A DNA stretch of 64,000 nt from positions 30,070,001 to 30,134,000 of the forward strand of contig OX597822.1 in NCBI GenBank assembly GCA_951406725.2. Reading direction: 5' to 3'. This DNA comes from Octopus vulgaris. Taxonomy: Eukaryota. Both the position numbers and the translations under genes were made by a program. The notes beneath the pieces were generated by a model that saw only the letters and a program-made list of their open reading frames with translations, was not told where the DNA came from and made no database searches. This document shows positions 51,201-62,554 of the stretch, in pieces. The number at the start of each line of letters is the position of its first letter. Positions within the stretch are counted from its first letter, which is position 1.

Positions 51201-54200
51201 TTATTTATTTAGTGTTTTCTAATATTTTTTCAGTTTACACCAGAAATTAACATGGGTGTTTTATGGTGACAATTTTCGTTCTTATCGTAATGCATTGCGC
51301 AAAGCTGCTGAGAATCCTCCCTATATACCTTGGGTTTTCCATTTCCTGAGGCATGTTGCAATACCATCTTGGGGCACGTATGTACACACTTGTAAGAAAA
51401 TAAAACGCGGAGTATTTAACAAAATTCATTTAAACGAACATCTGCACGATCAAGCAGAAACGAACATGAAATACAAAACGTCAAAGCTATCAAATTTTGA
51501 AAATGCATCAGTAACTACACCAAAAAATATGACAAATATAAAGCCTGAACCATTAAGATCAAGATTTTGCAAAGACTTGACGTGGAGATCAGGGATGAAA
51601 GTAGCTTCCAATAACAATAAGAACAAACGTATAGGGCCTTGTGTGATCACACCTGATATGTTAAAATCTGTTAAGTTACGAAAAGTTTCTAAGCAAGATA
51701 TATACAATGATAGAAGTAAAGATGAAAAGCAGAAAGGAGTAAAGAATATACCACAAAGATCAGCACTTTTCAATGAATTAAGAACAAAGTTTGATAGTGA
51801 AACTTCATCAGGACTCTCATCATATATTTGTTCGCAAGAGGTAATAGATTCTGTCAATGGCATCAGAAGTTCAAATACATATCACGATAGTCAGTCACAA
51901 ATTCCATCACCACACTCAGGGACCGATATTGAAGACATATTTCAAAGAACATTTAATGAATATATGTCTTCTGAATGCAGTATCTCGACTTACTTGAATG
52001 TAAATAGTCCATGTGAGGAAACTTATTGTTTTTGTGATGAAATGCGGAAGAGAGAACATGTTTCGCAAACCCAACAAAACGTGCTTCTACAAGAAGAAAG
52101 AAAGTCTGAAGAATTATTAAAAAAGAAAGGAAAAAAGACAGTAAGTACATATCTCGTTTAATATTTTGACCTAAGAAAGGCGGCGAGCTGGCAGAACCGT
52201 TAGTACGCCGGGCGAAATTCGTAGCCGTATTTCGTCTGCCGTTATGTTCTGATTTCAAATTCCGCCGAAGTCGACTTTGCCTTTCATCCTCTTGGGGTCG
52301 ATTAAATAAGTACCGGTTACGCACTGGGTCGATATAATCGAATTCATCCGTTTGTCTGTCCTTGTTTGTCCTCTCTGTGTTTAGCCCCTTGTGGGTAGTA
52401 AAGAAATAGGTATTTAGTCTGTCTTTACGTTCTGAGTTCAAATTCCGCCGAGGTCGACTTTGCTTTTCAACATTTCGGGGGCGATTAAATAAAAATCAGT
52501 TACGCACTGGTGTAGATGTATTCGACTTAATCCCTTTACCGGTCCTTGTTTGTCCCCTCTATGTTTAGACTCCTGTAGGCAATAAAGAAATATAAATTTT
52601 TACTTAAGAAAAGCGGCGAGCTGGCAGAAACGTTAGCACGCCGGATGAAATGCTTAGCGGTATTTCGTCTGTCGTTACGTTGTGAGCTCAAATTCCGCCG
52701 AGGTCAACTTTGCCTTTCATCCTTTCGGGGTCGATAAATTAAGTACCAGTTACGCTCTGGGGTCGATATAATCGACTTAATACCTATGTCTGTCCTTGTT
52801 TGTCTCCTCTATGTTTAGCCCCTTGTGGGTAATAAAGAAATAGGTATTTCGTCTGCTGTTTCGTTCTGAGTTCAAATTCCACCAGATCGACTTTGCCTTT
52901 CATCCTTTCGGAGTCGATTAAATAAGTACCATTTGCGTCCCGGAGTCGATCGAATGGACTGGTCCCCTCTCTCAAAATTTCGGGCCTCGTGCCTAGAATA
53001 GAAAAGTATATTTTTACCTATGACTAAGGCGGTGAGCTAGCAGAATCGTTAGGCGCCGGGCAAAATGCTTAGCGACATTTCGTCCGTCTATATGTTCTGA
53101 GTTCAAATTGCACCGACGCCGACTTTGCTTTTACACCCTTTTGGGGTCGATGAGATAAGTACCAGTTTAGCACTAAGGTCCGTGTAATTAACTCACCTCT
53201 TCCCTTGAGATTGCTTGTGATGTGCCAAAATTTGAAATCTATGTTTTTTCGTAACACCATAAGTTGATATATAGAATCGAGCTCAATTAACTCTCTTTAA
53301 ACAAGTAATTTTTTTTTTCTGTTTTATACTTATTTATAATCATCAAACAGTCTACCACAAAACCAGCATCCAAATTAATCATAATCGATAATTAATATTA
53401 AAATAAACCACTAAGATAAAGCTGACACTGAGTGAAGAAGACACAAGACTGTACATTTCAAGTTAACAGGACAAGTTATAATCGTACGAAAAACACTATA
53501 ATCTATCCAAGACAACGAACAGTATATAGTGATGCGGCTAATTTTCGGTATACATAGAAAAAGAAGTTACTGGCCGTTAAAATAAATAACAAATATTGCC
53601 AGTTCTAGAATGCAAGACTATTGAAAATGCATTAATGTACATCTGAAATGTTGCATTGCATGTCTTCAAATTTGTCATTCTTGTTTTCATTTTAAAATAA
53701 AGGGAAAGAAAACTAAAAACACAAAGAAGATGAAAGTTACTCAGAGTATACCTAGTTCAAAGAAGCAAGGTAGGAAAGCATCTTCTATCGAATTTTTCTA
53801 TGATGTATATATATATATATATATATATATATATATATATATATATATATATATATATATAAGAGAGAGAGAGAGAGAGAGAGAGAGAGACAGCTATAGA
53901 AATGCTATAGAGAGAAAGTGTTTCGGAAACCGGGAAGATATGTATGTATGTATATATAAACACACACACACACACAGATACAGAAACACAAACCTTGGTG
54001 GAAGCACTCCGTCGGTTACGACGACGAGGGTTCCGGTTGATCCGAATCAACGGAACAGCATGCTCGTGAAATTAACGTGTAAGTGGCTGAGCACTCCACA
54101 GACACGTGTACCCTTAACGTAGTTCTCGGGGATATTCAGCGTGACACAGAGAGTGACAAGGCCGGCCCTTTGAAATACAGGCACAACAGAAACAGGAAGT

Positions 54201-62554: not shown

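Follow-up and report, generated by a model that had tools for sequence, protein, structure and literature searches.

Can a RasGEF domain be interrupted in its catalytic hairpin by several hundred residues and still form one domain, and if so, what can it still do? The question is raised by a gene in a 64,000-nucleotide stretch of Octopus vulgaris DNA (the whole stretch analysed, in the following called the window). A sequence-only reading had described this gene as a RasGEF split at the helical hairpin, possibly a catalytically altered or dead GTPase scaffold; it was silent on two N-terminal PH domains, a cysteine motif and an adjoining paralogue, which are treated here as well.

Gene structure and neighbourhood

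The exon map was obtained by tblastn of the O. bimaculoides protein XP_014768911.1 onto the window, from 16977 to 62554. This protein, the longer isoform (1,114 aa) and itself a predicted model, was found with exon 8 as query. The split-RasGEF gene has 12 exons, an intact frame of 1,113 aa and GT-AG borders at all introns (Table 1), and the earlier numbering of exons 8-12 agrees with this model. The layout of the protein is PH-PH-linker-CDC25, where the CDC25 domain is without a REM domain.

Table 1. Positions, in window coordinates, of the split-RasGEF gene and of the last exon of its upstream paralogue (gene A).
Feature	Position	Strand	Content and basis
Gene A, last exon	915..1286	+	cysteine motif and C-terminal CDC25 piece as in exon 12
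Exon 1	16977..18239	+	start codon, two PH-fold domains, disordered linker; tblastn of XP_014768911.1
PH1	~16995-17303	+	within exon 1
PH2	~17394-17720	+	within exon 1
Exon 2	19955..20013	+	octopus form of the Trp-plus-helix motif preceding CDC25 in the subfamily
Exon 3	24795..24856	+	tblastn, splice sites and frame
Exon 4	36819..36903	+	ends where the CDC25 domain begins; tblastn, frame
Exon 5	41349..41472	+	N-terminal part of CDC25; tblastn, frame
Exon 6	42030..42158	+	N-terminal part of CDC25; tblastn, frame
Exon 7	47993..48126	+	CDC25 core, NFN motif; PF00617 match, spliced to exon 8 in X15 contig
Exon 8	51234..52140	+	PPYIPW, degenerate helix H, then first 255 aa of insert
PPYIPW	51316-51333	+	exon 8
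HFLRH of helix H	51340-51354	+	exon 8
Exon 9	53703..53769	+	insert; joint with exon 8 in X15 and X17
Exon 10	55301..55440	+	insert; tblastn, splice sites, frame
Exon 11	57621..57684	+	insert; tblastn, splice sites, frame
Exon 12	62247..62554	+	insert end, C-x2-C-x4-C, short helix I remnant, FQ..Y.F, last CDC25 helices, stop
C-x2-C-x4-C	62375-62401	+	exon 12
FQ..Y.F	62438-62467	+	exon 12

Exon 8 is an open exon of 302 codons with the hairpin motif at 51316-51369 (+), and the 274 stop-free codons after PPYIPW have a chance of about 3e-10 at the local base composition. Across exon 8, contigs of run X15 show 0 mismatches, and they carry the joints 48126>51234 and 52140>53703 (GT..AG); the second joint is also seen in contigs of run X17. 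X15 and X17 are runs of one study; four of the 24 runs with the stretch were examined, and none is recorded as RNA. Since spliced contigs read through exon 8, the insert belongs to the coding sequence. The joints of exons 9-12 are supported by splice sites, by the frame and by the predicted XP_014768911.1, but by no reads. An early donor within exon 8 was considered and rejected, as the contigs run through; contigs lose rare variants, so a minor isoform may exist.

Several predicted models differ from this one. Nine codons upstream of the modelled start there is another in-frame ATG (16950), at which XP_036362729.1 (P0004) starts; this record has a frame shift in exon 4 which leads to a PH-only product. 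RefSeq XP_036362857.1 merges the upstream paralogue with the split-RasGEF gene, omits exons 7-8 and 10-11, and looks mis-annotated; in this model exon 9 is able to join exon 12 in frame. The predicted O. bimaculoides isoform X2 (XP_014768912.1) has a frame shift after exon 9 (window 53703-55440) and stops short of the C-terminal CDC25 piece; it would, if real, represent a half-domain isoform.

The paralogue, gene A (L022-L024), starts 27.4 kb before the window and ends at window position 1286. It has the layout PH-PH-split CDC25, and its intron positions match those of the split-RasGEF gene through the CDC25 part. Its spacer is far longer, 860 aa in O. bimaculoides, and the insert includes an acidic stretch of loosely repetitive sequence as well as one more CCxC motif. 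By tblastn the two inserts show no match beyond the insert start. A genome search with the last exon found the two paralogues only, and a third genomic copy, for which P0004 was the candidate, is therefore unsupported. The search with PH1, a weak test that missed the diverged PH of gene A, found only the split-RasGEF gene. Twenty RasGEF exon matches were seen in the genome (L001-L020), two of them from the split-RasGEF gene pair; the others we take to be ordinary SOS, RasGRF, RasGRP, Epac and RalGDS-type genes.

Other parts of the window hold what are, judged by motif, presumably decayed Tc1/mariner-like transposase fragments (9471-9881 and 15267-15722 on the minus strand, ~58200-59200 on the plus strand), together with a presumed PIF1/Helitron-like helicase fragment and reverse-transcriptase-like fragments in introns (36056-36607 on the plus strand, 28844-29898). 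Furthermore, a dispersed high-copy repeat, a few hundred bases long, covered very deeply by contigs and likely a SINE, is found at 48635-49048, 52154-52981 and in many other introns.

A split hairpin shared by an animal subfamily

Between PPYIPW and FQ there are 423 aa, and the distance from the hairpin P to Q is 425 residues in the octopus gene vs 42-49 in each of the 21 aligned ordinary RasGEFs. The RasGEF is thus split at the hairpin as had been read from the sequence; the net insert comes to ~380 aa here, where ~390 aa had been given. The insert, called low-complexity before, is indeed rich in K/S/E/N/T (176/377 residues) and predicted to be disordered, though not a repeat. Compared with O. 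bimaculoides, the N-terminal part is 94% identical, the C-terminal part 93% and the insert 70%.

The canonical helix H (GxYLxDLxFIxEG) is absent from the gene, as are the short hairpin turn and the NFxK start of helix I, which upholds the earlier description of a degenerate motif after PPYIPW. A different exon supplying the canonical motif was ruled out by a six-frame search of the window for canonical helix H or NFxKxR, whose one match, at ~9492, lies outside the gene.

The Pfam RasGEF profile (PF00617) matches with 88 bits, the cut-off being 23.1, over residues 502-668 and profile positions 2-160 of 181, and the C-terminal piece escapes this match. It also went undetected by a profile built from 15 ordinary C-terminal pieces. 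On a subfamily profile built without molluscs, the last 70 aa score 11.4 bits, the best of 500 shuffles reaching 4.9; the same profile scores abalone C-termini barely or not at all. The C-terminal piece is therefore tied to CDC25 by the subfamily profile and not by the ordinary one. A PDB search with the C-terminal exon alone gave nothing meaningful (best E 0.11, a rubredoxin chimera via CxxC), and in the ESM Atlas the piece falls with RasGEF clusters at 0.83, which is a lead only.

Relatives were taken from a search of 1.84 billion representatives, using the best 150 of 829 matches; the abalones were also found by a second search. After octopus, the best matches among these 150 are nemertean, starfish and insect proteins, and the subfamily members named among the 20 proteins looked up are all called 'uncharacterized' or 'Ras-GEF domain-containing'. 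Subfamily members share an N-terminal PH domain, the lack of REM, an expanded hairpin and a related C-terminal piece, with spacers of 62-862 aa (42 rows, selected partly for this trait). The layout of the split-RasGEF gene recurs in its tandem paralogue, in three abalones and in 37 further rows.

A tree on 190 CDC25 columns without the hairpin, from which three near-duplicates were dropped and whose bootstrap is not fully settled, separates 39 subfamily rows from 21 ordinary rows with support 100/99, the molluscs falling inside. The ordinary rows in this tree are unnamed and look mostly non-animal, so that the separation does not extend to any named animal RasGEF class. Octopus and abalone group at 89/49, and the mollusc branches are long. 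FastTree, run on 150 of 172 proteins, recovers the same group at 0.90 with one row likely misplaced. In this quick tree two more degenerate RasGEF-like proteins without PPxIPF (P0077, P0143) stand near the octopus rows, possibly by long-branch attraction. The split hairpin is a feature of a whole animal subfamily, from insects to starfish, and not of one octopus gene.

These data also bear on the possibility of a gene-model artefact or a decaying gene, in which the long exon and the last exon would come from different proteins. The faulty XP_036362857.1 with its fused paralogues, the early stop of O. bimaculoides isoform X2, and the model-based joints of exons 9-12 all point that way. We nevertheless hold it to be very improbable: spliced contigs span all of exon 8, the reading frame stays open through the 12 exons, the paralogue, abalones and 37 other rows repeat the layout, and the last 70 aa score well above the best shuffle.

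No description of the subfamily was found in the published literature as searched by title and abstract start, with subscription journals thinly covered. An overview of RasGEF subfamilies lists them by human gene name, none with a split-hairpin layout in the portion of its text available (PMC3141262).

The lack of REM, stated in the sequence-only reading, holds across the subfamily: Pfam RasGEF_N matches 0/42 subfamily rows vs 9/21 ordinary rows. Ahead of CDC25, most insect members carry a motif F-W-T-P..Y..L..HL, and [FY]WT is present in 32/42 rows; the octopus form (window 19955-24856) is degenerate and lies in low-confidence helices. This motif might stand in for REM.

The PH domains were compared separately. 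PH1 and PH2 of exon 1 form an internal repeat (27% identity, E 7e-8). PH2 is modelled with a pLDDT of 89.5, and all Foldseek matches listed for it contain PH, the top one being Exo84 (E 8e-5, TM 0.59); in the ESM Atlas it matches assorted PH-fold families. A PH profile built without molluscs finds the abalone (E 7e-15), gene A (4e-6) and the split-RasGEF gene (5e-4), and within the compared set no ordinary RasGEF at E under 1. Pfam GARIL_Rab2_bd matches the subfamily PH weakly in 4/63 rows (best E 7e-4); the checked matches are below the Pfam cut-off and none is in octopus rows. GARINs are described as RAB2-binding testis proteins in PMC11236154. The likeness to the Rab2-binding domain of GARIN/FAM71 and to the Ral-binding PH of Exo84 is a lead only, as many unrelated PH domains score nearly alike.

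Exchange-site residues and predicted fold

SOS1 numbering was taken from an alignment and carried across a 150-row alignment, in which we distinguish 103 ordinary, 37 other subfamily and 6 mollusc rows, four rows being outside these groups. Counts of hairpin motifs use 97, 36 and 6 rows, respectively. Asp at the site of SOS Asn936 is present in 87/97 ordinary rows, 1/36 other subfamily rows and 0/6 mollusc rows, all of which have His. [EDN]G at 942-943 is found in 66/97, 2/36 and 0/6 rows, and N[FWYILMV]xK within 70 aa in 86/97, 3/36 and 1/6 rows.

At the Gly931 site, G in 89/103 ordinary rows, octopus has F or S (F in the split-RasGEF gene). The Arg885 site, R in 101/103 ordinary and 37/37 other subfamily rows, is H or N in octopus (H in the gene, exon 7). 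The Leu872 site is G or A in octopus (G in the gene, exon 7), G, A or W in the molluscs, and R or K in 32/37 other subfamily rows. The octopus gene furthermore has Pro at Thr940, within helix H, W at Glu942, and Ile at the Lys939 site, which is Phe in most ordinary GEFs. Retained in the gene are W at Phe929, M at Ile825 and the usual Asn at the His911 site; the Phe929 site is aromatic in 6/6 mollusc and 24/37 other subfamily rows. According to PMC8623491, the pocket for Ras Tyr64 in SOS is formed by Ile825, Leu872 and Phe929, the mutation F929A drops binding more than 50-fold, and Thr935 and Arg826 have little effect.

The loss of the Asp936-site residue, EG and NFxK, the replaced Gly931, the Pro in helix H and the His at the Arg885 site argue that the octopus CDC25 domain is catalytically altered, a proposal of the sequence-only reading that we regard as well supported. 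The word 'dead' fares less well, as the Tyr64 pocket keeps W and Met and the His911 site keeps Asn. Because two of the three pocket residues stay hydrophobic (M, W) and the lever is degraded, a protein that binds without exchanging is our first reading and an active GEF the second.

The same sites bear on a further alternative, namely that the CDC25 fold no longer meets GTPases and is a protein-docking module, like NSP/BCAR3 for p130Cas. In the NSP family (BCAR3, SH2D3C/NSP3) the CDC25-like domain is inactive and used as an adaptor, as reported in PMC10532290. With this precedent, the long mollusc branches and GTPase-facing sites that vary by branch (Leu872: R or K in 32/37 vs G, A or W in molluscs), a docking module is conceivable, but we consider it improbable, since the Phe929 site stays aromatic in all mollusc and most other rows and NSP3/BCAR3 are the weakest RasGEF matches of the profile (E 1e-8 vs 1e-62).

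The O. bimaculoides orthologue was modelled with AlphaFold2 from a 63-row alignment which included 21 ordinary GEFs and is thereby biased toward a rejoined fold like that of an active GEF. The pLDDT is mostly 87-98 for residues 491-660 (72-73 for 521-540), mostly below 50 in the insert, 56-58 in the cysteine segment and 89-95 for 1071-1110; residues 427-482 form a few helices at about 55-62. Helix H has 9 residues (654-662) and is followed by a low-confidence helix. Residues 489-1114 superpose on SOS1 771-1016 over 219-221 of 246 residues (2.1-2.2 A, Z about 25). As the N-terminal part gives at most ~175 of these aligned residues, the last-exon helices are predicted to be in their normal place. 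The approximately 25 unmatched SOS1 residues would be the hairpin tip, which we infer from an alignment that gave ranges only. In the prediction, the CDC25 core is completed by the C-terminal piece folding back, with the insert as a disordered loop that leaves the fold at the tip of the hairpin. NSP3/BCAR3 are absent among the best 50 structural matches listed, an outcome toward which the ordinary GEFs in the alignment also bias the model.

The model core superposes on active SOS, RasGRP and RalGPS with Z 24-26.5, in line with the octopus protein being an active GEF, in which a remodelled hairpin would have changed specificity, the insert would be a regulatory tip loop, and the mollusc His/Cys residues would stiffen the hairpin in place of REM. 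The retained W, M and N at the Phe929, Ile825 and His911 sites also fit this. Additionally, some fungal-type matches (P0063, P0093) have inserts of 120-160 aa at the same place beside a canonical helix H, thus an insert there is tolerated. Standing against it are the subfamily-wide loss of the Asp936-site residue, EG and NFxK, and in octopus the Pro in helix H and the lost Arg885. We therefore treat an active GEF as a serious but clearly less probable option.

The pair of motifs HFLxH and C-x2-C-x4-C in molluscs is new here. It is based on six mollusc rows, which represent three genes from two lineages. In each of them the 929 site is W and helix H carries HFLxH, so that His stands at sites 932 and 936, separated by a single helical turn; the first His (932 site) is carried by 9/37 other subfamily rows as well. 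C-x2-C-x4-C is likewise common to all six, its last Cys preceding the Q by 14 residues, and octopus and abalone are in ungapped register. C-x2-C-x4-C-x12..14-Q is found in 0/37 other subfamily rows and 0/103 ordinary rows. In the SOS fold, the place of the helix H His and that of the Cys before Q adjoin at the hairpin base in ordinary GEFs. The His gained on one arm and the three Cys on the other suggest a zinc site stapling the arms across the insert, i.e. a mollusc zinc clasp at the insert's base. The abalone inserts (P0031, P0170, P0171), of ~700 aa, contain numerous clusters of Cys and His in addition to the conserved motif at their end.

Possible function and meaning

Compared with CDC25 RasGEFs such as SOS1, RasGRF1, RasGRP and Epac, the octopus protein shares the PF00617 match and a SOS1-like predicted fold, and differs by the lack of REM, the ~380-aa break in the hairpin, the degenerate helix H and the lost NFxK. 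RalGPS1 is its best PDB sequence match (E 9e-9), and also that of the nemertean member. RalGPS1 has a C-terminal PH domain and no REM, thus REM loss alone is not disabling; both RalGPS and PLC-epsilon, without REM, are reportedly active. RalGPS1 keeps the canonical helix H (YLGIYLLDLIYID) without a long insert, whereas the octopus protein has no canonical helix H, its PH domains are N-terminal and doubled, and it ends with the CDC25 piece. NSP/BCAR3 are a proposed functional analogue, reached by a different structural route than the split hairpin: they carry SH2 and a closed fold binding p130Cas, and no SH2 was found in the octopus protein in Pfam scans.

Our main reading, at a probability of roughly 55%, is that the octopus protein is a dead or weak GEF acting as a GTPase-binding scaffold. 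The PH domains would place the protein on a membrane or on an active GTPase; targeting to an active GTPase is possible, the GARIN and Exo84 leads being weak. With its hydrophobic pocket retained, the protein would grip switch II of a Ras/Rap/Ral-type GTPase, but the shortened helix H would be unable to pry switch I open, and the GTPase would be tethered or sequestered instead of loaded. In molluscs, one helix H His and three Cys would bind zinc and so fasten the base of the hairpin, at the place that has lost the usual Asp and the NFxK motif.

More tentatively, the subfamily may be an old animal class of pseudo-GEFs with PH and split CDC25 that links one GTPase, via a GARIN- or Exo84-like PH, to another, the mollusc hairpin being rebuilt on a zinc clasp whose Cys residues lie 400-860 residues downstream. 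If so, the active hairpin of a RasGEF would contain a metal site that could serve as a zinc or redox switch.

The cataloguing of RasGEF classes has relied mainly on vertebrate genes. Since the C-terminal piece escapes Pfam and one RefSeq model is mis-fused, the layout is easily overlooked. A conserved animal subfamily with a split catalytic hairpin provides a natural test of which share of the hairpin is needed for exchange, and its insect members make genetics feasible. Next to NSP/BCAR3, it may represent another way of arriving at a Ras pseudo-GEF, possibly with a metal site in the CDC25 hairpin.
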